From positions 1,162 to 65,161 of the forward strand of contig JAPLEL010000098.1 of the NCBI GenBank assembly GCA_026391415.1: a stretch of DNA of 64,000 nucleotides, written 5' to 3'. The notes under the pieces were generated by a model, which was given only the letters and a program-made list of their open reading frames with translations, was not told the origin of the DNA and made no database searches. Positions within the stretch are counted from its first letter, which is position 1. Each line of letters starts with the position of its first letter. This document shows positions 19,344 to 36,440 of the stretch, one piece after another. A program made the translations under genes and the position numbers. Source of the stretch: Bacteroidota bacterium (lineage in GTDB: Bacteria; Bacteroidota; Bacteroidia; Chitinophagales; Chitinophagaceae).

Positions 19344-19415
19344 AATGAGGGTTTAAAGATTATTTCTTCAATGTTGTGCCCTAATTACACAAAACCTTTT
19401 TTATAGGCAGGCCAA

Positions 19416-19829
19416 TTAGAGTCTAGAACACAGTTCATTTGGAGTCAAAACAAGTATTTCACATGCTTTAAAATCTTTTACATTTCGAGTTACTATACAG
19501 TCCATTTTATCAATAGATGTTGCGCAATAAATTTGTATAGAATCTTCAAAGTCCTTTTGCTTTGACCTTAAGCCTTTTGTAAGCACTTCTGTGTCAACTG
19601 AAATTATTGTCATATATTCAATTAAGCCTAAAAGGGTTTTACGAAGAGAACTATCATCTATAAACTTCTTTAATAAATAATAGGTTGTTGCTATGGAATG
19701 AGATGAAGCAAAAAGTTTTACTTTCTTGTTTTCTGATGCGTTGAAAATTTCAACAGCATATTTGCTAAAAGGCTTTCGATCGGCTAACAGATCCACCAAA
19801 ATATTAGTATCAACGAAAATCTTTTTCAT
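19416..19829 (-). CDS. PIN-domain toxin (VapC-like)
   Basis: The N-terminus FVDTNILVDLL carries the PIN acidic residue. There is a 4-nt overlap with the upstream small antitoxin ORF. Confidence 0.8.
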   Translation of the reverse strand: MKKIFVDTNILVDLLADRKPFSKYAVEIFNASENKKVKLFASSHSIATTYYLLKKFIDDSSLRKTLLGLIEYMTIISVDTEVLTKGLRSKQKDFEDSIQIYCATSIDKMDCIVTRNVKDFKACEILVLTPNELCSRL

Positions 19830-20068
19830 AAGTGTTTTTTCTCCAAATAGTTTTGTAACTCCTTCTTTTCATCGAAGCCTTTCGGAAGCTTAACTGCCCC
19901 AATTAATTTTTTTAACCTTGGAGAAATGTGTTGAGTGCTATTATCTTGAGTTAATGTGTCAAGATACTGTTCAATAAGTCTAGAAAGGCTTCTACCAGAA
20001 ACTTTAGCATAGGACTTTGCCCGCTCAATAACATCTTTCTCAACTGTGAGAGTGAGTTTAGTTGTCAT
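19826..20068 (-). CDS. antitoxin of the PIN toxin (DUF6364-like)
   Basis: 80-aa ORF from the ATG at 20068 (MTTKLTLTVEKDVIERAKSYAK...), translationally coupled to the PIN gene. The longer track ORF runs into a remnant of another gene. Confidence 0.7.
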   Translation of the reverse strand: MTTKLTLTVEKDVIERAKSYAKVSGRSLSRLIEQYLDTLTQDNSTQHISPRLKKLIGAVKLPKGFDEKKELQNYLEKKHL

Positions 20069-20113
20069 AGTACGTGTGTTTTTTTTAAAGATACGTACTA
20101 TGACAACTAAACT
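20055..20113. promoter_or_regulatory. perfect 21-bp inverted repeat spanning the antitoxin start codon
   Basis: AGTTTAGTTGTCATAGTACGT (20055-20075) is the exact reverse complement of ACGTACTATGACAACTAAACT (20093-20113), with a 17-nt spacer. The ATG at 20068 lies inside the left arm. Confidence 0.5.
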
Positions 20114-20132
20114 ATATGTTTTCATAATACTA

Positions 20133-20342
20133 TTTTTTCTCGTTAAAATATTTTATTCTCAAAGCTTCAGCTCTTTCAATTTCTGCTTTTGGGGTTTTGT
20201 CAGTTCTCTTTATGAAGCCATTTGACGAAACTACAATTGTATTTTGTCTATCAGATTTGTCCCAAAATGCAAACAATCTGATATATTGCTTATTATATAA
20301 AGTTCTAAATTCCCAAATTTCTCCATCAAGTTTTTTAAATAA
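20133..20342 (-). pseudogene. 5'-truncated remnant of a HigB/RelE-type (Gp49-like) toxin gene
   Basis: The stretch 20107-20344 aligns by eye at high identity with 24184-24421. The remnant encodes the last 70 codons (LFKKLDGEIWEFRTLYNKQYIRLFAFWDK...KYFNEKK). An in-frame TAA at 20343-20345 lies directly upstream and there is no start codon. Confidence 0.8.
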
Positions 20343-20375
20343 TTACATTTTCTCTAATGTATATGCTACAAAATA

Positions 20376-20735
20376 TCACAATACAATAAAATACAGAATT
20401 GCAATTTTTTGTTGACTTCTTGGTGAACCGTCAATTCGGCCAACAATATTATAATTGCCATCTTTAATTGTGTTACCGTCAATTCGGCCAACAATATTAT
20501 AATTACCGTCTTTAATTATGTTACCGTCAATTCGGCCTATAATATTATAATTACCGTCTTTAATTATGTTACCGTCAATTCGGCCTATAATATTATAATT
20601 ATTATTTTTCACAATATCACCGTCAATACGCAATTGGATATTATAATTTCCATCTTTTACCGTAATTGATTGCGACACTGCGGAGAAACCAAAAAGTGTT
20701 ACTAAAAGAAGACTAAGAAAAATAGTTTTTTTCAT
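20376..20735 (-). CDS. secreted tandem-repeat protein (16-aa KDGNYNIxGRIDGNxI repeats)
   Basis: Signal peptide MKKTIFLSLLLVTLFGFSAVSQS followed by about 5 in-frame 16-aa repeats. The C-terminal tail is non-repeat and may be a truncation read-through. Confidence 0.65.
   Translation of the reverse strand: MKKTIFLSLLLVTLFGFSAVSQSITVKDGNYNIQLRIDGDIVKNNNYNIIGRIDGNIIKDGNYNIIGRIDGNIIKDGNYNIVGRIDGNTIKDGNYNIVGRIDGSPRSQQKIAILYFIVL
20427..20666. repeat. 48-nt tandem repeat, 5 units (coding)
   Basis: Unit starts (ACCGTCAAT...) occur at 20427, 20475, 20523, 20571 and 20619, an exact 48-nt period. Confidence 0.9.
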
Positions 20736-20883
20736 TTTATTATAATTTAAGTTTTGCCTACTTCAAGTTTTTAGGTCTTGTTCGGCATATTCTGACCCGA
20801 TATTATTTTTTGGACTATTCTCTGACTTTTCTTAGTCAGGTTGATTCAGTGGCTTTTGTCTTAATCTTGTTTATTAATATTAC

Positions 20884-20963
20884 CCATAACGGTTTGCGCG
20901 TAGGCGATGTTGTCTTGTGTAGCGCCTGCGGCAAGGCAATATTGCTTACACGCTGTAATAAGC
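20884..20963 (-). repeat. attC-like imperfect palindrome, site 1 (short type)
   Basis: Ends CCATAACGGTTTGCG ... CGCTGTAATAAGC, with the right core degenerate. The inner stem is TTGTCTTG/CAAGGCAA around the conserved loop GCGCCTGCGGCA. It lies 3 nt from the stop of 20967..21395 and is homologous to site 5. Confidence 0.5.
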
Positions 20964-20966
20964 AGA

Positions 20967-21395
20967 TTAACCTCTAAGGCAATTTTTCAAATCAAACTTC
21001 AGGACAGAGGAAAAACAATTACCATCTTCCTCATCAAAGTCTGGCTTGCTAATTCTCCAACATTCTGATTCTTCAATATTAAAAATAAATACCTCTTTCA
21101 ATGAGCGAATTTCTTTAATTGCCTTTTTTACTTTTTTTATATCTGAATTCCAGCTTCTATTTCTAGTTACTTCTATGATTATCTCTGGTTGATTCCATGT
21201 ACTTTCTCTCTTTTTAACTGAAATATCCGGAATTATATAACCGTCTTTTAGATCTTCATTTCTTAACACTACTTCTGGTGCTACTTTAAATTCGTATTGC
21301 AATCCCCTACTTTGTAAATGCCTACGAATGTGATAAATAAAATCTGAAATCACTTCCTGATGAAGGGGGATGTTGTAACCTGAAATCTGAGACAT
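20967..21395 (-). CDS. small PD-(D/E)XK-like protein (Uma2/DUF820-like)
   Basis: Pattern YIIPDISV ... PEIIIEVTRN ... KKVKK ... EVFIFN resembles the D...E-x-K core and layout of Uma2-family endonucleases. This is motif-level evidence only. Confidence 0.4.
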   Translation of the reverse strand: MSQISGYNIPLHQEVISDFIYHIRRHLQSRGLQYEFKVAPEVVLRNEDLKDGYIIPDISVKKRESTWNQPEIIIEVTRNRSWNSDIKKVKKAIKEIRSLKEVFIFNIEESECWRISKPDFDEEDGNCFSSVLKFDLKNCLRG

Positions 21396-21518
21396 ATATT
21401 TAGTTGTTTATTTGCTTGTAGCGTGTGTTAGCAGAAGTTTGTTGGATTTTATTTCATACTTCTATTAATCCTCAACGACTGGTTTCGAGCGTCGAGAGTG
21501 TAGTTCTTTTTGTATTTC

Positions 21519-21650
21519 TGCTAACGGTTTCGGTCTTGGCGAAGTGGGGGATTTAGAAGCACAAATGTTCGGTTAATCACTAATGTTGTTAGAAGTACAA
21601 ATGCTCAATTTAGCAATTCTGCCCCCATTTTGCCAAACCTTTGTTAGCGG
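21519..21650 (-). repeat. attC-like imperfect palindrome, site 2 (long type)
   Basis: Ends TGCTAACGGTTTCGG ... CCTTTGTTAGCGG. The arms pair with bulges (GGCGAAGTGGGGG / CCCCCATTTTGCC). The TAA stop of 21644..22426 lies inside the GCTAAC core on the minus strand. Confidence 0.5.
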
Positions 21651-22426
21651 TTCGTTGTTTTTTGTTTTGTTGTATTAAATCTGTATGAAAGTCCCAATGA
21701 TATATAGTTTTTTGGTGCATTTTCAGTAAGTCCAAAACCTCCTGAAATGTCAGCCAAAATGTCGTTTTTTATTAAATATGTCAAACCGCAGTCAAATCTA
21801 TGGTCTGCCTTGTTTTCTGCTGGTAAAAATCCATATAATTCAGTATAACAACCAATTTTTTCTGTCAAACTAAAACCTGTAGTTAATGTGTAGATATAAC
21901 TATGTTCCGCATTTTCGCCATTCCATTCTGCTCCTAAATTATAAGCAAGTGATATTTTTTCTGTCAATGTGTGTTGCATTGTAAACCTAAAAGAAGGTGC
22001 AATATGTTTCGTCTGAAATTCTTTACTGCTAATATTTGAAGTTGTAATATGTCCAATAAATGAAGTTTTTGGAATAAATCCTTTTTCTTCAAATAGTGAA
22101 GTTTTAAATCCAATCGTTATTGGTAAAAGCCCCGTATTTGTATTTCCGTTTGTTTTTTCTGAAACCAATTCTGTAATTAGTCTTAATTCAAACTTTTCAT
22201 TAATTCCATATTTCCATAATGTTGAAGGATAATTATATGACTTTTGGTTTTGGTCAAAATTTTCAATGGTAAAACCATTTTCAATTTGAATGTATTTTTT
22301 GGGTGTAATAAATGGACACTCTGTTTGGTCGGGTCGGTCTAACTGAATTGCAGGCAAACTTTGTCCATATAGGTTGTCAATAGTTGTTCCAAAGCATATT
22401 GCGAAATGAATAAAATATTTTGCCAT
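21644..22426 (-). CDS. outer-membrane beta-barrel, MetA-pathway-of-phenol-degradation-like transporter family
   Basis: The N-terminal LDRPDQTECPFITPKKYIQIENGF motif and beta-barrel-like repeats resemble that outer-membrane family. Confidence 0.6.
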   Translation of the reverse strand: MAKYFIHFAICFGTTIDNLYGQSLPAIQLDRPDQTECPFITPKKYIQIENGFTIENFDQNQKSYNYPSTLWKYGINEKFELRLITELVSEKTNGNTNTGLLPITIGFKTSLFEEKGFIPKTSFIGHITTSNISSKEFQTKHIAPSFRFTMQHTLTEKISLAYNLGAEWNGENAEHSYIYTLTTGFSLTEKIGCYTELYGFLPAENKADHRFDCGLTYLIKNDILADISGGFGLTENAPKNYISLGLSYRFNTTKQKTTNR

Positions 22427-22480
22427 TTTAATGTTGTATTTCAGTTTTACGTTGTCTGTTTAGGTGTCGTTTTACAATGA

Positions 22481-22615
22481 CCGCTAACGTTTTGCAGCTA
22501 AAAGAAGTTGGCGATTTTTACCACAAATGTTCATACGAAGAACCAATGTTAAAGATAGCAAAAAATGTCAAACGAAGCGATAAGCCACCGCTTTTGCAAA
22601 CCCAATGTTATGGGC
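22481..22615 (-). repeat. attC-like imperfect palindrome, site 3 (long type)
   Basis: Ends CCGCTAACGTTTTGCAGC ... CTTTTGCAAACCCAATGTTATGGGC. It shares internal motifs with sites 2 and 4 (GAAGTTGGCGA, TACCACAAATGTTC). Confidence 0.5.
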
Positions 22616-22690
22616 TGGCATATTTCCAAATGTGGTTTTAATTATTAGCTAAAATCTTTTGTCGTGGTATAGAAAAACGACTAGAATAAT

Positions 22691-22876
22691 ATGAGTAAAG
22701 TTCAAAAAATTTGGGTTGTAACAAAACTAACAAAACGTTCCACGCTGATTGACATTCTGTTTAGTGCAGATATGAAACGAATGGAATTACAGTTTAAGGG
22801 AGGCTTGTCTGGAAGCGAAATTATCGGTAATTTACAACGAAAACCGAAGCCGAAAAAGTTGCTAAAATGGCGTTAA
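22691..22876 (+). CDS. hypothetical small basic protein upstream of fic
   Basis: 61-aa ORF on the same strand as the Fic gene. No recognisable family; coding status uncertain. Confidence 0.3.
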   Translation: MSKVQKIWVVTKLTKRSTLIDILFSADMKRMELQFKGGLSGSEIIGNLQRKPKPKKLLKWR

Positions 22877-22948
22877 TAAAAGCCGGTGCAATTAACAAGT
22901 TTTAATTAGTTGGCGGATTAATTCCGACAACTTTAAAAAATATTTATT

Positions 22949-23737
22949 ATGGGAAAACACCTAAAATTAATATCGGTTGAATATTTGCATGAATATTCAA
23001 ATAAAGTAAAAGTTGATTGGTTTGAAGTTTTTAATAAGCTAAAATCCAAAACTCAATTTTCAATCGAGGATTTTGAATATTATATTATATCATCATCTCT
23101 TTATTCGTCAAAAATTGAAGGTAATAGCCTTGATGCTAATAGTTTCTTTAGAAATCGAGGTAAGAAAACATCGCCTAAAAAGAAAGAGGTACAAGAAATC
23201 GAAGCGCTTATGGAAGCACATAAATTTGCTTCTGAAAATAAATTAAATAGAACAACTTTTTTAAAATGTCATTTGATACTATCAAAAACTTTATTACCAG
23301 TTAAAGAAAGAGGTGTTTTAAGAAAAGAACAAGTTGGTGTTAGAGATTCTAAAACATTAAAACCTGTTTATTTAGCGGCAGAACCTCAATTTCTCAAGGA
23401 AGAATTTAGTAAACTGTTTGACGATATTGATGAATTATTAAAAAGAGAATTAAGCCATAAAGAAATATTATATTTTGCGTCAATGATTCATATATGGTTA
23501 GCTAAAATACACCCTTTTAGTGATGGTAATGGAAAGTCTGCACGATTATTGGAAAAGTGGTTTTTAGTTTCAAAATTGGGTCTTTCTGCATGGTCAATTA
23601 ATTCTGAAAAATATTATTGGGATAACCGTCCCGATTATTATCAAAATATTGCTCTTGGATATAATTATTATGTTCTTTATTGGAACAGATGTATACCATT
23701 CTTGTTAATGTTGCCAGAAGCTATGCGGCTGTCCTAA
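22949..23737 (+). CDS. Fic family protein (class II, internal inhibitory helix)
   Basis: Fic motif HPFSDGNGKSAR (nt 23510-23545) and an N-terminal inhibitory motif SSKIEG matching [ST]xxxE[GN] (nt 23105-23122). Confidence 0.85.
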   Translation: MGKHLKLISVEYLHEYSNKVKVDWFEVFNKLKSKTQFSIEDFEYYIISSSLYSSKIEGNSLDANSFFRNRGKKTSPKKKEVQEIEALMEAHKFASENKLNRTTFLKCHLILSKTLLPVKERGVLRKEQVGVRDSKTLKPVYLAAEPQFLKEEFSKLFDDIDELLKRELSHKEILYFASMIHIWLAKIHPFSDGNGKSARLLEKWFLVSKLGLSAWSINSEKYYWDNRPDYYQNIALGYNYYVLYWNRCIPFLLMLPEAMRLS

Positions 23738-23744
23738 TCATTTG

Positions 23745-23880
23745 CCCATAACGTTCCGCCGCTTCATGAAGTGGCGAACTTCGTAACAGCATATTTTCCA
23801 CTAAGAAAATATTTCTTGCGAAAGAAAAATGTGATTTTACCACATTTTTCGCCATTTCTTGAAACGGCTGTTATGCGTTC
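23745..23880 (-). repeat. attC-like imperfect palindrome, site 4 (long type)
   Basis: Ends CCCATAACGTTCCGCC ... ACGGCTGTTATGCGTTCGGC, with an internal hairpin GTTCCGCCGCTTCATGAAGTGGCGAAC. It lies 10 nt from the HigA-like stop and 7 nt from the Fic stop. Confidence 0.5.
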
Positions 23881-23890
23881 GGCAATTTAT

Positions 23891-24202
23891 TTACAGAATT
23901 GCAACTTTTTGATTTAGCAACTCAACATTGAAATTTACCTTTGCATTTAGTGCTTTGAAAACTTTCATTATTGTGTCAAATCGTGCATCAGTTAAGCTAT
24001 TTTCAATTTTCGAAATTTGTGCTTTTTTGACACCAACTAACTCGCCTAATTGCTCTTGAGTTAAATTTCTGTCTTTACGAATTTGCTTGATTGTTTGGCC
24101 AATAAGTTCAAGCTTTAATTCATTTTCAAAAGCATCTCTATTTTGAGTTCCTTTCTTTCCAACGAATTTATCAGTTACTTCATCTAAACTATATGTTTTC
24201 AT
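23891..24202 (-). CDS. XRE-family HTH antitoxin (HigA-like)
   Basis: HTH segment RKDRNLTQEQLGELVGVKKAQISKIENS. It lies 4 nt downstream of the toxin gene, the toxin-first order typical of HigBA. Confidence 0.85.
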   Translation of the reverse strand: MKTYSLDEVTDKFVGKKGTQNRDAFENELKLELIGQTIKQIRKDRNLTQEQLGELVGVKKAQISKIENSLTDARFDTIMKVFKALNAKVNFNVELLNQKVAIL

Positions 24203-24206
24203 AATA

Positions 24207-24545
24207 TTATTTTTTTTCGTTAAAATATTTTATTCTTAAAGCTTCAGCTCTTTCTATTTCTGCTTTTGGAGTTTTATCTGTTTTCTTTATAAAACCATTT
24301 GATGAAACTACGATTGTATCTTGTTTGTTGGACTTGTCCCAAAAAGCAAGTAATCTGATATATTGCTTATTGTACAAAGTTCTAAATTCCCAAATTTCTC
24401 CATCAAGTTTTTTAAATAATTCGTTATCATTTACACTTCTTGATTTCCAAATATTGTAAAGTATTTTTTCTCTTGACTTTTGATCTAAACTTTCCAAAAA
24501 TTCCATTACTGGTTCAAGAAATTCAACTTTGAATTTATATTCCAT
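24207..24545 (-). CDS. type II toxin, RelE/HigB superfamily (phage Gp49-like)
   Basis: 112 aa, with WEFRTLYNKQYIRLLAFWDK typical of Gp49-like killer proteins. It is paired with the HTH antitoxin. Confidence 0.8.
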   Translation of the reverse strand: MEYKFKVEFLEPVMEFLESLDQKSREKILYNIWKSRSVNDNELFKKLDGEIWEFRTLYNKQYIRLLAFWDKSNKQDTIVVSSNGFIKKTDKTPKAEIERAEALRIKYFNEKK

Positions 24546-24630
24546 TTGATGCTTTTAAATTATTTTGGGTAAAGATATAAGTTTCCTTTTTAAGAAACAA
24601 ATTTTCTTAGAATTTTCGGGCGGATTGCTG

Positions 24631-24714
24631 ACGCATAACGGTTTGCGTGCAGGCGATCGTAGCCCTGTGTTGCGCCTGCGGCAGGGCTATGGCGCTTGCA
24701 CGCTGTTATGCGTT
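24631..24714 (-). repeat. attC-like imperfect palindrome, site 5 (short type)
   Basis: ACGCATAACGGTTTGCGTGCAGGCG ... GGCGCTTGCACGCTGTTATGCGT. The inner stem is a perfect TAGCCCTG/CAGGGCTA around the loop GCGCCTGCGG. It lies 6 nt from the stop of 24721..26334. Confidence 0.55.
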
Positions 24715-24720
24715 CGGCTT

Positions 24721-26334
24721 TTAGTCATCGGTCAAAGGTTTTATCATATCAACATAGTTTATTGGTTTTGCTAAAACTGGAACATTGTCTAATGTTTTTC
24801 CGTGTTCAAAAATTTGCCGCCAATAATCGTAGTTCTTTTTACCTGCAAAAATTGTCCCTGCCATACCACGGTCTTTCCAAAGTGGCAATGATTTTAGGTT
24901 TTTTACGAAGTTGGTAATGTTAGTCCAAAGTTGGTCGTCAAACTTTTGTTGGAATACTGAACTTTTGTTGAATTTTTTTCCTGTGTTACTAAAATAGTTA
25001 TTAATAACATCACTTATGTAACTTAACCAACTTATCAAAATTTCTTCTTTACTCATACGATAAGAAATAAGATGATTGTCCGAAATGTCAATATCTTTTC
25101 CATCAACTATTTTGCTTTCAATTCTTGCAACACCGATTTCTGGTTGGAAATTAGAAACATAAATTTCGTCCGCAAGAATGTTTAGTAATTTAATTGCCTG
25201 GGAAATTTCTAATTCTCTTGGATTAAGCCCTTCGTCTGATTTAAAATTTATTGGTGTTGCAAGTAGTTGTTTGCTGTCAATGAAAATTGTCAAAAAAGAC
25301 TTGTCAAAAGCACTATAAGAAATTGGCAATTCTTTCGCTTTACCATCTCTGTCAATGTAGTCTTTCAATTTATTTTCATTAGCTTCTGTTATCGAATGCT
25401 TAATGCTGTCAATGATATATTTTTTAATATTAGCGTTGTCACCTTTAAAATAGTCTACCAATTTTTGTTCAGAAAACGTAAAATCATCTTCTTTAAAACT
25501 ATGGTCTTCTTGATATTTTTTTATTCGTTCGTAATATAGTGTGTTATTTAATTGTCGCATTACCGATTTGTCAAAAGCTATTTGGCTTAAAACACTTCCA
25601 GCATTTGTGTTTGTTTCTGTCAACCTGTCGATATCAGGATCAATAAAAACTCTAATTAAAATTCGTTTGTTGCCCAATAAAATTTGGGCTACCGCTTTAT
25701 GTTGTCCATCGAATATTTTAATTTTATTGTTTTCAACACGTCCTAAACTTAAATGCAACTGGGGATTTTTCTTATCGAATTCCTTTACCAGTTTGCTAAT
25801 ACTGTTATTTATTCCCCTTGGATTTATTAATTCATCGTGATAGATGTATTCAATTGGAAATGAAATGAAGCAGGTTTTTTCATTTGATAAAAAGTCTGTG
25901 TGAACTTCTGTTTCATAAATTTTGTTGTCGCCTAATTCAGAAAAACTGTATGAAAGTTTATCTCCTTTTATTGTAAACTTGAAGTCATGCTTTGAGCCGC
26001 TGTAAGCAACTAAAAGTTGTTTTAATGATGCAGATTTATTTTCTGCTTGTAATGTGTCCTCTTGTATTTTTTTAAGTTTGTAAAGAGTCCGAGCTATTTT
26101 CAAATCAGCGTCTTGTTTTGACTTATTACAACTTTCGTGGGTTACTGCAAAATTCTCTTCACTGTCTTTACCTTTATTAGCCAATGGAGTAATATGGTCA
26201 ATATTTGTCGTGTGAAGTTTTAGGTCTAACGGTTCATTACAAATGAAACATTTGCTGTTTTGAATCTTCCATAATTTCTCAGTCAACTGGTCGTAGTCAA
26301 CTGTCGCTAATGATTTTAAATATTTTGATGCCAT
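24721..26334 (-). CDS. HNH endonuclease fused to a DGQHR/ParB-like (DndB-like) domain
   Basis: N-terminal HNH motif (CFICNEPL...IDHITPLANKGKDSEENFAVTHESCNKSK, nt 26116-26250). A central motif KIFDGQHKAVAQILLG (DGQHK at nt 25696-25710) resembles the DGQHR/DGQQR motif. The long C-terminal region was not assigned. Confidence 0.7.
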   Translation of the reverse strand: MASKYLKSLATVDYDQLTEKLWKIQNSKCFICNEPLDLKLHTTNIDHITPLANKGKDSEENFAVTHESCNKSKQDADLKIARTLYKLKKIQEDTLQAENKSASLKQLLVAYSGSKHDFKFTIKGDKLSYSFSELGDNKIYETEVHTDFLSNEKTCFISFPIEYIYHDELINPRGINNSISKLVKEFDKKNPQLHLSLGRVENNKIKIFDGQHKAVAQILLGNKRILIRVFIDPDIDRLTETNTNAGSVLSQIAFDKSVMRQLNNTLYYERIKKYQEDHSFKEDDFTFSEQKLVDYFKGDNANIKKYIIDSIKHSITEANENKLKDYIDRDGKAKELPISYSAFDKSFLTIFIDSKQLLATPINFKSDEGLNPRELEISQAIKLLNILADEIYVSNFQPEIGVARIESKIVDGKDIDISDNHLISYRMSKEEILISWLSYISDVINNYFSNTGKKFNKSSVFQQKFDDQLWTNITNFVKNLKSLPLWKDRGMAGTIFAGKKNYDYWRQIFEHGKTLDNVPVLAKPINYVDMIKPLTDD

Positions 26335-26381
26335 ATTTTTTTTGTTTGATTTTGTTGTCGTTTGTTTGTTTTATTAAGCTG

Positions 26382-26586
26382 ATGCATAACGGACAGGGCT
26401 TGCTGCTGTGCTGGTATTTTATAATGTCCAGCCCGGAACCGCTGCTGATTGAAAAACTGAAGTTGAAGTTAACAACAAAAAGCTGAACATTGAACGTCGA
26501 GCCCGGACTACTGCTGATAGCGAACAAAAAGATGAGGATTTATTCGTCAGCCAGCATAGCAGCAAACCCCCTGTTGTACGTTCGCC
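26382..26586 (-). repeat. attC-like imperfect palindrome, site 6 (extra long, internal direct repeats)
   Basis: TGCATAACGGACAGGGCTTGCTGCTGTGCTGG pairs with CCAGCATAGCAGCAAACCCCCTGTTGTACG. Internal direct repeats AGCCCGGAACCGCTGCTGAT and AGCCCGGACTACTGCTGAT. About 200 nt long, above the usual attC size. Confidence 0.4.
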
Positions 26587-26651
26587 CTTCGTCTTGGTGT
26601 GTCAAACTAAATACTGTGTCCAATGAAGTAGGGTGTGTCCCGGAAGCGTTG

Positions 26652-35573: not shown

Positions 35574-36440
35574 CTATAAATCATCAAAGGGGCTTTTAAT
35601 ATTCTGTAAATGATTCGTGCTTACATGGGTGTATATTTCGGTGGTTTTGCTGCTACTGTGGCCTAATAATTCTTGTATATATCGTAAATCGGTTCCGCTT
35701 TCTAATAAATGTGTTGCATAACTATGTCTTAGCCAATGGAGGCTAACTGGTTTTTGAATATTCGCTTTTTCTACAGCTTGCTTTAATACGTTGGCTAAGC
35801 TTCTTTCATCGTAAGGTTCGTTGCCCCTTTGCCCCTCAAACAGCCAAGTAACAGGCTTGTATCCAATATAATAAGTTCGTAATAGGGCTAACACTTTTTG
35901 CGACAAGGGTACTATTCTATCTTTCTTGCCTTTTGCTTGCCTAATAATAATAATGTTTCTTTTTGAGTCTATATCTGCCGGCTTTAAATTTATTAATTCA
36001 TTTCTCCTTAATCCACAGCTATAAATTACCGAAAGCATTGTTTTGTGTTTTATATTACTATGCGCTTCTAATATTTTTTTAATTTCATCTTTACTTAATA
36101 CATTCGGCAATAACTTCTCGCGCCTTGGTCTATGAATTTTATCAATTACAATTTCTATATTTTGTAGTGTGTTAAAATATAATTTAATAGCATTTACTAC
36201 TTGGTTTTGAAACGATGTAGACAGATTTTTTTTAAGAATGTAATGCGTATTATAATTTATTACGTCTTGGTTGGTTAGCGTACTTACTGGCTTATCATTA
36301 AAATACACTAAAAACGATTTTAAGGCTTCTGTATATGTTTTAATGGTACTGGGGCTATACCGTCTAGATTGCAACCATTCTTTAAACGCTTGCAGGTGCT
36401 CGCTGGCTTGTTCTGATATTATTTGTGTGTCTTTTTTCAT
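35574..36440 (-). CDS. tyrosine-type site-specific recombinase (XerC/D-sized, no IntI-specific insertion)
   Basis: SAM-like N-domain (YSPSTIKTYTEALKSFLVYF). Catalytic residues are in context: CGLRRNEL (Arg), HWLRHSYATH (His-x-x-Arg) and LGHSSSKTTEIYTHV (His, Tyr). Confidence 0.9.
   Translation of the reverse strand: MKKDTQIISEQASEHLQAFKEWLQSRRYSPSTIKTYTEALKSFLVYFNDKPVSTLTNQDVINYNTHYILKKNLSTSFQNQVVNAIKLYFNTLQNIEIVIDKIHRPRREKLLPNVLSKDEIKKILEAHSNIKHKTMLSVIYSCGLRRNELINLKPADIDSKRNIIIIRQAKGKKDRIVPLSQKVLALLRTYYIGYKPVTWLFEGQRGNEPYDERSLANVLKQAVEKANIQKPVSLHWLRHSYATHLLESGTDLRYIQELLGHSSSKTTEIYTHVSTNHLQNIKSPFDDL

Follow-up and report, generated by a model that had tools for sequence, protein, structure and literature searches.

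The minus strand of the window (by which we mean the whole 64,000-nucleotide stretch of DNA analysed) encodes a 537-aa protein that we take, at a probability of about 0.5, to be a self-contained, horizontally mobile defence endonuclease gated by nucleotide binding. The protein joins an HNH nuclease domain, intact as judged from its sequence, to a ParB/sulfiredoxin-fold core and a helical C-terminal domain (Table 1), and it probably serves as a one-gene anti-phage nuclease. Both the defence function and the sensing of modification or nucleotides are what we infer from the analyses described below. The open reading frame itself is present as originally predicted, and its strand, which had been left unstated, is minus.

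Table 1. Coordinates in the window of the 537-aa gene, its encoded domains and the flanking attC sites.
Feature	Coordinates	Strand	Basis
ORF encoding HNH / beta linker / ParB/sulfiredoxin-like core / helical domain	24721..26334	minus	complete, 537 aa + stop (ORF list)
N-terminal helices + HNH (beta-beta-alpha-metal) domain, aa 1-98	26041..26334	minus	PF01844, PDB profile matches, Foldseek
Linker helix + small beta-sheet subdomain leading into ParB-like core, aa 99-166	25837..26040	minus	AF2 secondary structure
ParB/sulfiredoxin-fold core, aa 167-255	25570..25836	minus	Foldseek against PDB and BFVD, conservation
D209-G-Q-H-K213 codons, DGQHR-like / ParB Box II-like, K for R	25696..25710	minus	invariant, 24/24
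All-helical domain, fold without known match, aa 256-537	24724..25569	minus	separate AF2 model
Downstream attC	24633..24711	.	79 nt, GCATAAC...GTTATGC, near-perfect hairpin, DNA dG -28.1 kcal/mol
Upstream attC-type site	about 26384..26583	.	~199 nt, long imperfect hairpin, dG -29.2

An integron cassette with one gene

The 537-aa HNH gene is carried in the window as an integron cassette. Two attC sites enclose one ORF with little non-coding DNA, in agreement with the prediction of a single-gene cassette. The downstream attC starts 10 nt past the stop codon, giving a 3' spacer of 9-10 nt, and is the sole strict attC-like match in the 64 kb window when scanned with a relaxed core and a strict hairpin; the background of that scan was 4 matches in 1.27 Mb of other loci. 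The upstream attC-type site has conserved ends in common with other intergenic sites. From its GTTATGC core (minus strand) there are about 50 nt to the ATG, a short 5' leader. Because these two boundaries fall so close to the start and stop codons, the cassette consists of the 537-aa ORF alone. A scan with the strict RYYYAAC/GTTRRRY consensus returned no attC match since the sites here use GCATAAC/GTTATGC.

PIN/DUF6364 and Gp49/HTH toxin-antitoxin (TA) cassettes are members of the same array. The gene had been placed between TA modules, and this is correct on one side only: a Gp49/HTH pair lies directly downstream (23891-24545), whereas upstream we found a DUF6377 regulator and a SusC/D locus and no TA pair. 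No integron integrase (IntI) adjoins the array in the window. The only tyrosine recombinase in the window (35574-36440) lies 9 kb off and scores 213.9 bits against the IntI cutoff of 265; given its distance, orientation and sub-cutoff score we rejected it, as unproven, as the IntI of this array. A homolog in Marinomonas (L004) is also an integron cassette, the second of its array, with an attC that overlaps the stop codon, and here the IntI scores 389.5 bits against the same cutoff of 265. The cassette state was thus seen in two lineages, and more than 95% of the surveyed loci are not cassettes.

Domains of the 537-aa protein

The HNH motif that had been read from the sequence was recovered in full (C29-x-x-C32, D46-H47, N61 and H66-x-x-C69-N70), and the Pfam HNH profile PF01844 matches aa 29-75 above its gathering cutoff (E=3.7e-7; 30.6 bits vs 21.4). 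The same profile matched 21 of 24 aligned family members. Among these members C29 and N61 are invariant, D46-H47 is kept in 22, N70 in 21, and H66 and C69 in 20 each; the set covers the D-H general base, the structural Asn, the H/N that binds metal and the zinc-binding Cys/His residues. Profile searches of the PDB matched the protein to the En domain of group II intron maturases, the nearest by sequence, and to the Cas9 HNH domain, and a Foldseek search with the AlphaFold2 (AF2) model likewise matched the N-terminal domain to Cas9 HNH domains. The linker and beta-sheet subdomain that follow are among the least conserved segments of the protein, with a mean pairwise identity of 27%.

The ParB-like motif is held in KIFDGQHKAVAQILLG (aa 206-221). 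The residues D209-G-Q-H-K213 are present in every aligned member, at overall identities down to 25%, and this conservation is well beyond chance, no other stretch being better conserved in what is a large family. The core as a whole has a mean pairwise identity of 50% across the 24 members, the highest in the protein, as compared with 27-33% elsewhere. Its other invariant motifs are N171-P-R173, P191-Q-L193 and L238-x-x-x-N242..A245..L249.Q251..F254, with QPR in place of NPR in the two most divergent members.

The full-protein AF2 model (pLDDT 90.9, pTM 0.78) was used for structure searches, and these support the predicted ParB-like fold for the region around DGQHK. The top 25 Foldseek matches in the PDB were all ParB, Noc, PadC, KorB or sulfiredoxin, most of them at probabilities of 0.9-1.0; the leading matches, which are nucleotide-bound ParB, Noc, PadC, KorB or sulfiredoxin, had probabilities of 0.97-1.0 and TMt values of 0.5-0.66, with a best E of 6e-3 that is modest and was obtained with a predicted model as query. 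ParB structures with CTP or CDP (7bnk, 7bnr) were among them. A search of BFVD likewise placed ParB/Sulfiredoxin on top (best E=3e-4) and DndB-type proteins lower down. The solved structures nearest to the model are canonical CTP-binding ParB, Noc, PadC and sulfiredoxin and not SspE, DndI or BrxU. In the model DGQHK sits where a strand passes into a helix, as expected of Box II, with an invariant Lys in the position of the GxxR/DGQHR Arg. Because this phosphate-motif Arg is replaced, nucleoside triphosphate (NTP) binding or hydrolysis by the core stays putative.

Sequence profiles gave no match above cutoff for the core, and the predicted kinship to DGQHR/DndB or DUF262 proteins could not be demonstrated by sequence, the Pfam DndB, DUF262 and ParBc profiles all being unmatched. 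Neither ParBc (PF02195) nor another ParB-clan Pfam profile matched any of the 24 members even at E<=5, and PF14072 was never matched among them. TIGR03187 did not match the window protein and was sub-threshold in two of the 24 divergent members (best E in the batch 0.0038); its best single-member match, in P0162, lies exactly over NPR..DGQHK and reached 16 bits against a cutoff of 58.85 (E 0.0075). When the core profile was run against 5.8 billion proteins it recovered the family itself alone, mostly as fragments, and no bridge to DndB, DUF262 or ParBc. When the PDB was searched by sequence, be it with the protein itself or with the profiles of the whole family and of the core, the matches were HNH ones only, apart from core-profile matches to tropinone reductase and DsbE that we dismissed as chance. 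Nor did Pfam, NCBIfam or PADLOC profiles match anything within aa 80-537. Since no sequence profile joins the core to DGQHR/DndB, DUF262 or ParBc, we do not assign the protein to any of these three.

The C-terminal domain was modelled separately with high confidence (AF2 pLDDT 93.0, pTM 0.90) and carries the invariant or near-invariant polar residues E289, R373, E376, H421, R426 and W486. About 300 residues had been described as belonging to no recognisable family, and indeed the last 282 (some 280 residues) have neither a family nor a fold match: the domain matched nothing in Pfam, NCBIfam or PADLOC, and Foldseek with the isolated domain found no meaningful match in the PDB (best E=4.3, probability <=0.05). 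Given this null fold search we accepted neither of two candidate identities as demonstrated: HEPN, which has been suggested for the C-terminal part of DndB (PMC3632139), and ParBDB, a domain that SspE and GmrSD possess (PMC12065111). The order H421-x4-R426 is the reverse of the HEPN Rx4-6H motif.

Family distribution, neighbourhoods and alternative explanations

More than 1,200 homologs of about 537 aa were found, and the three-part architecture is constant over about 412 clusters at 50% identity. All full-length relatives retain the C-terminal region from about residue 90. The pattern FDGQHKx[AV]A recovers 566 loci, and the family occurs in at least 566 species of more than 12 phyla, ranging from Bacteroidota through Clostridia to CPR bacteria and DPANN archaea, the last two having small genomes with few known defences. 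Occurrence is patchy (about 0.3% of species representatives), and copies from different phyla are 65-70% identical. By these sequence comparisons the family is widely horizontally transferred. No full-length copy was found in 50,697 phage genomes and no full-length relative in the plasmid collection searched, which fits a host gene and gives no direct link to the mobile carriers of defence genes known from cultured organisms.

The neighbourhoods of homologs are variable and rich in defence genes, and no housekeeping or modification operon recurs in them. All-against-all clustering of neighbours revealed no conserved partner gene; the commonest neighbour family was present in at most 19 of 89 loci and at varying positions. 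Neighbouring ORFs were called at >=70 aa, a size below which partners could escape in loci that are not cassettes; the cassette in the window has no space for a small partner ORF because only the 537-aa ORF lies between its attC sites. For PADLOC families (E<=1e-10) we counted 389 among 150 adjacent genes, as against 78 among 145 genes lying 7.5 kb off or more; the comparison is one of families matched rather than of genes, and redundancy among the Type I models inflates it. One locus contains CBASS and a Type III restriction-modification (R-M) system, another SIR2 and a Type IIG R-M system. Residence in such defence islands is suggestive of a defence role; it is no proof of one, and TA and addiction genes also inhabit these neighbourhoods.

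The company of TA genes bears on one alternative, that the protein is an abortive-infection or addiction-type toxin whose HNH domain attacks host DNA once a cue of infection, for example a phage protein or a changed NTP pool, is detected by the ParB-like domain, or that it stabilises the cassette array as TA modules do. We regard this as unlikely, even though the gene shares its array with PIN/DUF6364 and Gp49/HTH cassettes, neighbour clustering found no self-protecting modification gene and fusions of ParB-like domains to nucleases have been proposed as programmed-cell-death modules (PMC3632139). No antitoxin-like partner is conserved and the cassette has no space for one, and a solitary, constitutively toxic nuclease would be hard to pass across more than 12 phyla. 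The toxin and defence readings differ mainly in target, self as opposed to foreign DNA. The mobility of the gene could also be that of a selfish, homing-type HNH endonuclease that cuts empty target sites and is copied into them, leaving a lone gene with differing flanks. The gene does move as a unit, for the window and one Flavobacterium have only positions 24712-26346, the gene itself, in common (93% nucleotide identity); at another locus it stands alone, inserted behind hemY, copies from different phyla are of very high identity and the HNH domain is nearest in sequence to that of group II intron maturases. Homing is nevertheless improbable in our view: there is no intron, intein or phage context, insertion sites are heterogeneous with no single conserved target gene, at least two copies move through integron attC recombination, and an invariant ParB-like and helical region of 440 aa is atypical for homing enzymes.

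It is equally improbable that the protein is an accessory or regulator of adjoining R-M or DNA-modification systems, either a DndB-like, ATP-dependent repressor (DndB being a regulator; PMC12704722) or an additional nuclease subunit for Type I R-M. Some of the 84 loci, about 12, do have the gene within a Type I R-M operon or directly behind one and in the same orientation, for example as hsdR-gene-hsdM at L059 and L061. At more than 75% of the 84 loci, however, neither an R-M methyltransferase nor HsdR lies within a distance of four genes, the 84 non-redundant loci show no association with dnd, ssp or other DNA-sulfur modification genes, and in Marinomonas as in the window the gene is an isolated cassette; conservation of the catalytic HNH residues favours an enzyme over a repressor. 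As for a housekeeping role in DNA repair, segregation or the nucleoid, the nearest solved folds are indeed those of the chromosome-segregation proteins ParB and Noc. Even so we consider such a role exceedingly improbable, and the distribution effectively refutes it: the family is patchy and its 65-70% identity across domains of life defies phylogeny. There is moreover no parA or parS context, Pfam detected no ParB HTH or dimerisation domain, the GC content of the ORF is 31.5% as against 36.0% for the window, and the genomic contexts are variable and island-like.

Proposed mechanism and relation to known systems

If the protein is a defence endonuclease, its ParB-like domain may bind, and perhaps hydrolyse, a nucleoside triphosphate, by analogy with ParB (CTP), DndB (ATP/GTP) and the NTPases SspE, DndI, GmrSD and BrxU, and so act as a conformational switch. 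The helical C-terminal domain would provide DNA binding or target sensing and possibly dimerisation, and, once foreign DNA is recognised, the HNH domain would be set free to nick or cleave it. The most economical target would be DNA with a phage-type modification, host DNA being spared; this target is assumed only because no cognate modification enzyme travels with the gene. In a bolder and rather doubtful version the protein would represent a new class of immune nuclease: a nucleotide switch of the ParB-CTPase type, coupled without intermediary to an HNH domain, would close as a clamp on DNA. NTP binding would shut the protein, as it does ParB, on DNA recognised by the C-terminal domain, with a structure, free ends or a phage-specific modification as possible cues, and sliding or clamping would place the HNH domain for cleavage. 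Such a clamp would amount to a defence logic unlike that of GmrSD, SspE and DndI and to the first enzymatic effector role for a switch that is canonical-ParB-like and not DUF262-like, and the spread into tiny CPR and DPANN genomes would make it an unusually portable one-gene immunity module.

Were the protein a defence enzyme, it would constitute an unnamed one-gene immune system in the species and phyla listed above, including gut Bacteroidota and Clostridia, packed into a cassette of 1.6 kb and equipped with a putative sensor domain of 280 residues whose structure is novel. The joining of ParB-like NTP switch and His-Me nuclease would then reach beyond the DUF262-DUF1524 lineage and would have arisen, or been rearranged, independently. 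The gene also offers a testable example both of integron cassette arrays as stores of anti-phage genes and of Type I R-M operons as places where additional defence genes settle, and the family allows the Lys-for-Arg Box II motif of ParB to be examined for nucleotide switching.

The original prediction recognised no named defence system in this architecture, and PADLOC v2 bears this out: it contains no model for the family and gives only generic HNH-level matches (Cas9 and PtuB models). Literature searches for an HNH and ParB-like architecture found no description or test of the family. ParB-CTPase-HNH fusions appear in a PNAS survey of 2025, where they are described no further than as novel and uncharacterised (PMC12704722); the Pfam-based detection of that survey would miss the present family. 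Integrons are now viewed as biobanks of anti-phage cassettes (PMC12614218). The window gene resembles these defence cassettes in being a single promoter-proximal ORF bounded by attC, and differs in that its array has no adjacent integrase; we found no report of the family among integron defence cassettes in the literature searched.

In the protein, NPR resembles Box I (QPR) of canonical ParB and the G-x-x-basic motif resembles its Box II. Canonical ParB differs in that the 537-aa protein has no ParBc match, no parS/ParA context and no recognised HTH or dimerisation domain, and is nuclease-fused, island-borne and horizontally mobile. DGQHR and DUF262 domains are defined by the motifs QR, DGQHR and FxxxN (PMC4619093), and the protein has counterparts in the same order, (N/Q)PR, DGQHK and LxxxN, of which only DGQH is exact; in both groups the ParB-like core gives way to a helical region. 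The best-known protein with DGQHR, DndB, acts as a repressor and not as a nuclease. Unlike the DGQHR/DndB family (TIGR03187, PF14072), the 537-aa protein is fused to an HNH domain, has an invariant Lys for the Arg and lies in no dnd operon.

The closest parallel is to GmrSD, BrxU, SspE and DndI, which like the 537-aa protein combine in one polypeptide a ParB/sulfiredoxin-superfamily domain with a DGQxR-type motif, a helical region and a His-Me-finger nuclease, and which are likewise single-gene systems of defence islands, often linked to Type I R-M. Single proteins that join a ParB-like NTPase to a His-Me nuclease are proven defence enzymes (PMC11662687, PMC12065111), and in characterised GmrSD-type members NTP hydrolysis gates the nuclease (PMC4619093, PMC11662687, PMC12065111, PMC3632139). 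The parts differ. GmrSD-type enzymes have an N-terminal DUF262 with DGQQR and a C-terminal DUF1524 (PF07510), whereas the 537-aa protein has its DGQHK mid-protein and its nuclease, a PF01844 HNH nearest to those of Cas9 and the group II intron En domain, at the N-terminus, so that the inverted domain order originally proposed is borne out. DUF262 (PF03235) matched none of the 24 members and the PADLOC models for GmrSD, BrxU and SspE were unmatched; the C-terminal domain does not match the solved structures of SspE, DndI or BrxU (entries 7DRS for SspE and 9JFL for DndI; PMC11662687), and no phosphorothioation genes stand alongside the gene. We infer that the 537-aa protein may act in the manner of Type IV (GmrSD-type) restriction enzymes, with its domains in reverse order, a canonical HNH in place of DUF1524 and unrelated flanking domains.

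Domain anatomy of the HNH-gene protein

The 537-codon ORF and its motifs are real and lie where the original prediction had placed them, although it had not mentioned the minus strand. The complete N-terminal HNH motif (C29-F-I-C32, D46-H47, N61 and H66-E-S-C69-N70) was borne out, since residues 29-75 match Pfam HNH (PF01844) above its gathering score (30.6 bits versus 21.4). In NCBIfam and PADLOC this region matches nothing but the HNH module of Cas9, IscB and PtuB, and residues 80-537 have no match in Pfam, NCBIfam or PADLOC. An alignment of 24 family members, with identity down to 25%, revealed invariant residues C29, N61, P160, P172-R173, Q192, D209-G-Q-H-K213, A216, N242, A245, L249, Q251, F254, E289, R373 and R426. 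Mean pairwise identity is highest in the ParB-like core (50%, versus 27-33% in the other segments). The same alignment was the basis of an AlphaFold2 model of the whole protein (mean pLDDT 90.9, pTM 0.78; see table).

Every leading Foldseek match of this model in the PDB is a ParB/Srx-fold protein, bearing out the ParB-like fold that had been proposed; apart from these, Cas9 HNH domains match the N-terminus. Among the ParB/Srx matches are Myxococcus ParB structures containing CDP or CTP-gamma-S (7bnk, 7bnr; E=6e-3, probability 1.0, target-normalised TM 0.56), PadC (TM 0.63), Noc, KorB and the sulfiredoxins of human and plants (TM 0.54-0.66). The solved SspE, DndI and BrxU structures are not among the top PDB matches. 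Among viral predicted structures, ParB/Sulfiredoxin proteins rank on top (best E=3e-4) and DndB-type 'DNA-sulfur modification-associated' proteins lower.

The proposed likeness of the middle domain to DGQHR and DUF262 proteins holds for the motifs but not for the family. Three motifs define the DGQHR domain, namely a QR pair, DGQHR itself and FxxxN, and GmrS/DUF262 has them too (Machnicka et al., PMC4619093). The HNH-gene family carries similar motifs in the same order, (N/Q)PR (QPR in the two most divergent aligned members), DGQHK (residues 206-221 read KIFDGQHKAVAQILLG) and LxxxN. However, Pfam DndB, DUF262 and ParBc match none of the 24 members, even at E<=5, and TIGR03187 is matched, below cutoff, by just two. 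In the per-member scan one of them, the divergent P0162, scored 16 bits against a cutoff of 58.85 (E 0.0075) over residues 173-234 (profile 68-132), exactly the NPR-to-DGQHK segment. A profile of the core alone recovered only its own family from a 5.8-billion-protein collection and nothing from the PDB. We therefore rejected membership in the DGQHR or DUF262 families; the central domain can safely be called a ParB/Srx-fold domain that has diverged very far and bears a Box II-like motif, DGQH[K].

Modelled alone, the C-terminal 282 residues gave pLDDT 93 and pTM 0.90, with no meaningful match in the PDB (best E=4.3, probability <=0.05). The protein joins an intact HNH nuclease to a strongly conserved ParB/Srx-fold domain and a novel helical domain. 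An invariant polar constellation in the latter (E289, R373, E376, H421, R426 and W486) contains H-x4-R, the HEPN Rx4-6H motif in reverse order, and could line a pocket for a ligand or DNA, or serve as a second active site.

Features of the HNH gene, its protein and the surrounding DNA (window positions, or residues where marked aa)
Feature	Position	Strand	Details
HNH gene ORF	24721..26334	minus	537 codons; window ORF list
Helices and beta-beta-alpha HNH domain	aa 1-98		AlphaFold2 model
Linker helix and small beta sheet	aa 99-166		AlphaFold2 model
Alpha/beta core	aa 167-255		AlphaFold2 model; beta hairpin into DGQHK, at helix start
All-helical domain	aa 256-537		AlphaFold2 model; window 24724-25569; contains the polar constellation
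attC site	24633-24711		79 nt; dG -28.1; 10 nt past HNH-gene stop codon; sole strict-scan match in 64 kb
attC-type site	about 26384-26583		199 nt; end about 50 nt upstream of HNH-gene ATG
attC-type site	about 20884-20958		R' core at 20958 is GTAAT
attC-type half-sites	near 21520 (left end); 23867-23883 (right end)
attC-bounded array	19400-26600		Flavobacterium-type chromosome
Direct repeat	20104-20344; 24181-24421		241 nt; 90% identity
Beta-flower (PF21785) ORF	20376-20735	minus	48-nt (16-aa) tandem repeats; 83-100% identity between adjacent copies
MetA-like outer-membrane protein gene and Fic gene	21644-23737	minus (MetA-like); plus (Fic)
Tyrosine recombinase	35574-36440	minus	288 aa

A one-ORF cassette in an attC array

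The HNH gene sits in an accessory stretch of roughly 7 kb, bordered by housekeeping genes (MFS transporter, PhzF) on one side and a DUF6377 / His-phosphatase / SusD / SusC locus on the other. The stretch also contains PIN + DUF6364, a beta-flower repeat protein, Uma2, a MetA-like outer-membrane protein, Fic and a HigBA-like HTH + Gp49 pair. The gene had been described as lying between TA modules, which holds downstream, where HTH + Gp49 is found, but not upstream, where the DUF6377 / His-phosphatase / SusD / SusC locus follows.

Intergenic DNA of the stretch carries attC-type sites whose ends are shared, one reading GCATAACGG... and the other ...CTGTTATGCGTTCGGC. A strict scan, for which the xxxxAAC/GTTxxxx cores had to be complementary and the DNA had to fold into a strong hairpin paired at its ends, found the site behind the HNH gene, against a background of four matches in 1.27 Mb of other loci. 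Since attC sites bound the gene on both sides, the cassette contains the HNH ORF alone, and this is direct evidence that the gene is a self-sufficient unit. No integron integrase adjoining the array was found in the window. Its sole tyrosine recombinase, 9 kb from the array and beyond the SusC/D locus, scores above the cutoff of the NCBIfam 'XerA / integron integrase' model (232.9 bits versus 220) but fails the IntI model (213.9 versus 265, with the match split in two stretches). The array looks like a clustered set of attC sites that has no integrase.

Several of the array's attC sites are degenerate. The first copy of the direct repeat, which adjoins the PIN-DUF6364 pair, duplicates in truncated form the 3' end of the Gp49/HigB-like toxin gene and the start of its HTH partner; it was probably left behind when cassettes duplicated or recombined. 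The beta-flower ORF is a candidate for repeat-number variation. The MetA-like and Fic genes, the latter on the strand opposite to the remaining array, are flanked by attC-like ends, the right one identical over 17 nt to the end beside the HNH gene, and may form one cassette of two genes or have inserted into a site. GC content is 31.5% in the HNH gene, 32.2% in the array, 36.0% in the whole window and about 35% in the flanking housekeeping regions, which fits a foreign origin of gene and array.

Distribution and neighbourhoods of homologs

The HNH-gene protein had 1,208 significant matches in the 5.8-billion-protein collection. Among the best 120 of these, almost all are about 530-540 aa long with 64-97% identity, and source names include Bacteroidota, Leptospira, Marinomonas, Sulfurospirillum, CPR bacteria and Nanoarchaeota. 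With residues 90-537 alone as the query, HMMER was run exhaustively over 1.84 billion cluster representatives and recovered 412 clusters (E<=1e-3); all full-length members have 510-560 aa and match from near residue 90 onwards, so the HNH plus C-terminal architecture stays fixed to about 27% identity. When one genome per GTDB species was scanned with a sequence pattern, relatives turned up in at least 566 species, among them Firmicutes, Spirochaetota, Proteobacteria, Planctomycetota, Atribacterota, Cloacimonadota, Melainabacteria, several CPR phyla and Nanoarchaeia. No full-length relative was found in 50,697 phage and 72,556 plasmid records, where only the HNH module matches.

The gene is autonomous, mobile and resident in defence islands. 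A second Flavobacterium MAG (L038) has only 24712-26346 in common with the window, at 93% nucleotide identity between unrelated flanks. In Marinomonas flavescens a bona fide IntI (TIGR02249, 389.5 bits versus 265) is followed by one cassette, the homolog, whose stop codon is overlapped by a 92-nt attC, and then TA cassettes. Elsewhere the homolog is a lone insertion after hemY (a gammaproteobacterial-type contig), follows CBASS (SMODS + E2), a Type III R-M pair and a 160-aa ORF (a Bacteroidetes MAG), is flanked by SIR2_2 and an Eco57I/MmeI-type enzyme, or, as a 97%-identical copy, adjoins integrase fragments and a reverse transcriptase. The L038 copy (L038:9977-11613), the closest genomic one, is called by a simple ORF caller as two ORFs (202 and 279 aa); such a split reflects either a frameshift in a pseudogene or an error of the MAG assembly.

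Clustering of the +-4 neighbours at 89 loci revealed no conserved partner gene; the largest families, methyltransferases (19/89) and HsdR of about 1,000 aa (12/89), vary in position. At about 12 of 84 non-redundant loci the homolog is co-oriented with and embedded in, or directly after, a Type I R-M operon, arranged as hsdR-gene-hsdM (L059, L061) or hsdM-hsdS-hsdR-gene; loci so linked are L059, L061, L013, L039, L056, L057, L016, L024, L080, L072 and L073. DUF262/COG1479 genes have long been known to share this habit (PMC3632139). In several loci an ORF of 171-197 or 318 aa intervenes between homolog and Type I R-M genes. At E<=1e-10, 389 PADLOC families were counted among 150 genes within two positions of a homolog and 78 among 145 genes at least 7.5 kb off, a crude comparison that counts families rather than genes and includes redundant Type I models, yet with a clear direction: more defence families beside homologs. 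The far set also holds defence genes, as expected of islands. The neighbourhood survey thus agrees with the variable defence contexts that had been predicted.

Proposed mode of action and known systems

The intact HNH domain and defence-island residence fit the original view of a candidate defence nuclease, while its DGQHR/DUF262 affiliation falls away; we put the probability that the gene encodes a defence-related nuclease at about 0.7. ParB is switched by CTP, DndB is an ATP- and GTP-binding protein, and in SspE, DndI, GmrSD and BrxU the NTPase activity of DUF262 links recognition of DNA with a His-Me nuclease (PMC11662687, PMC12065111, PMC12704722). By analogy with these proteins, the central domain would act as a switch that binds NTP, DNA would be bound or sensed by the helical domain, and cleavage would fall to the HNH domain. 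Dependence on phage-type DNA modification (Type IV logic) might tell foreign DNA from self, and would be the most economical discrimination because no modification enzyme accompanies the gene. Alternatively, an infection cue may trigger HNH cleavage of the cell's own DNA, leading to abortive infection. For an NTP-gated nuclease directed at foreign DNA, a reading drawn from analogy, we see roughly an even chance; its main biochemical uncertainty is the invariant Lys replacing the Box II Arg.

Literature searches found no published description or test of the family. A 2025 survey of the ParB-CTPase fold called HNH fusions novel and unstudied (PMC12704722); it was based on Pfam detection, which misses the HNH-gene family. 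The general concept is already familiar to defence specialists. The gene is a candidate for an unnamed, widespread defence system made of a single gene, with a putative sensor domain of novel fold, and its architecture, spread (including CPR and DPANN), cassette packaging and fold-novel C-terminal domain make it a good and directly testable one.

Among known systems, GmrSD, BrxU, SspE and DndI would by analogy share its proposed way of working, but it differs from them in every family feature (DUF262, DUF1524, domain order and PADLOC models). It resembles DGQHR/DndB only in its motifs, and the structures nearest to its central domain, as modelled, are canonical ParB and Srx.
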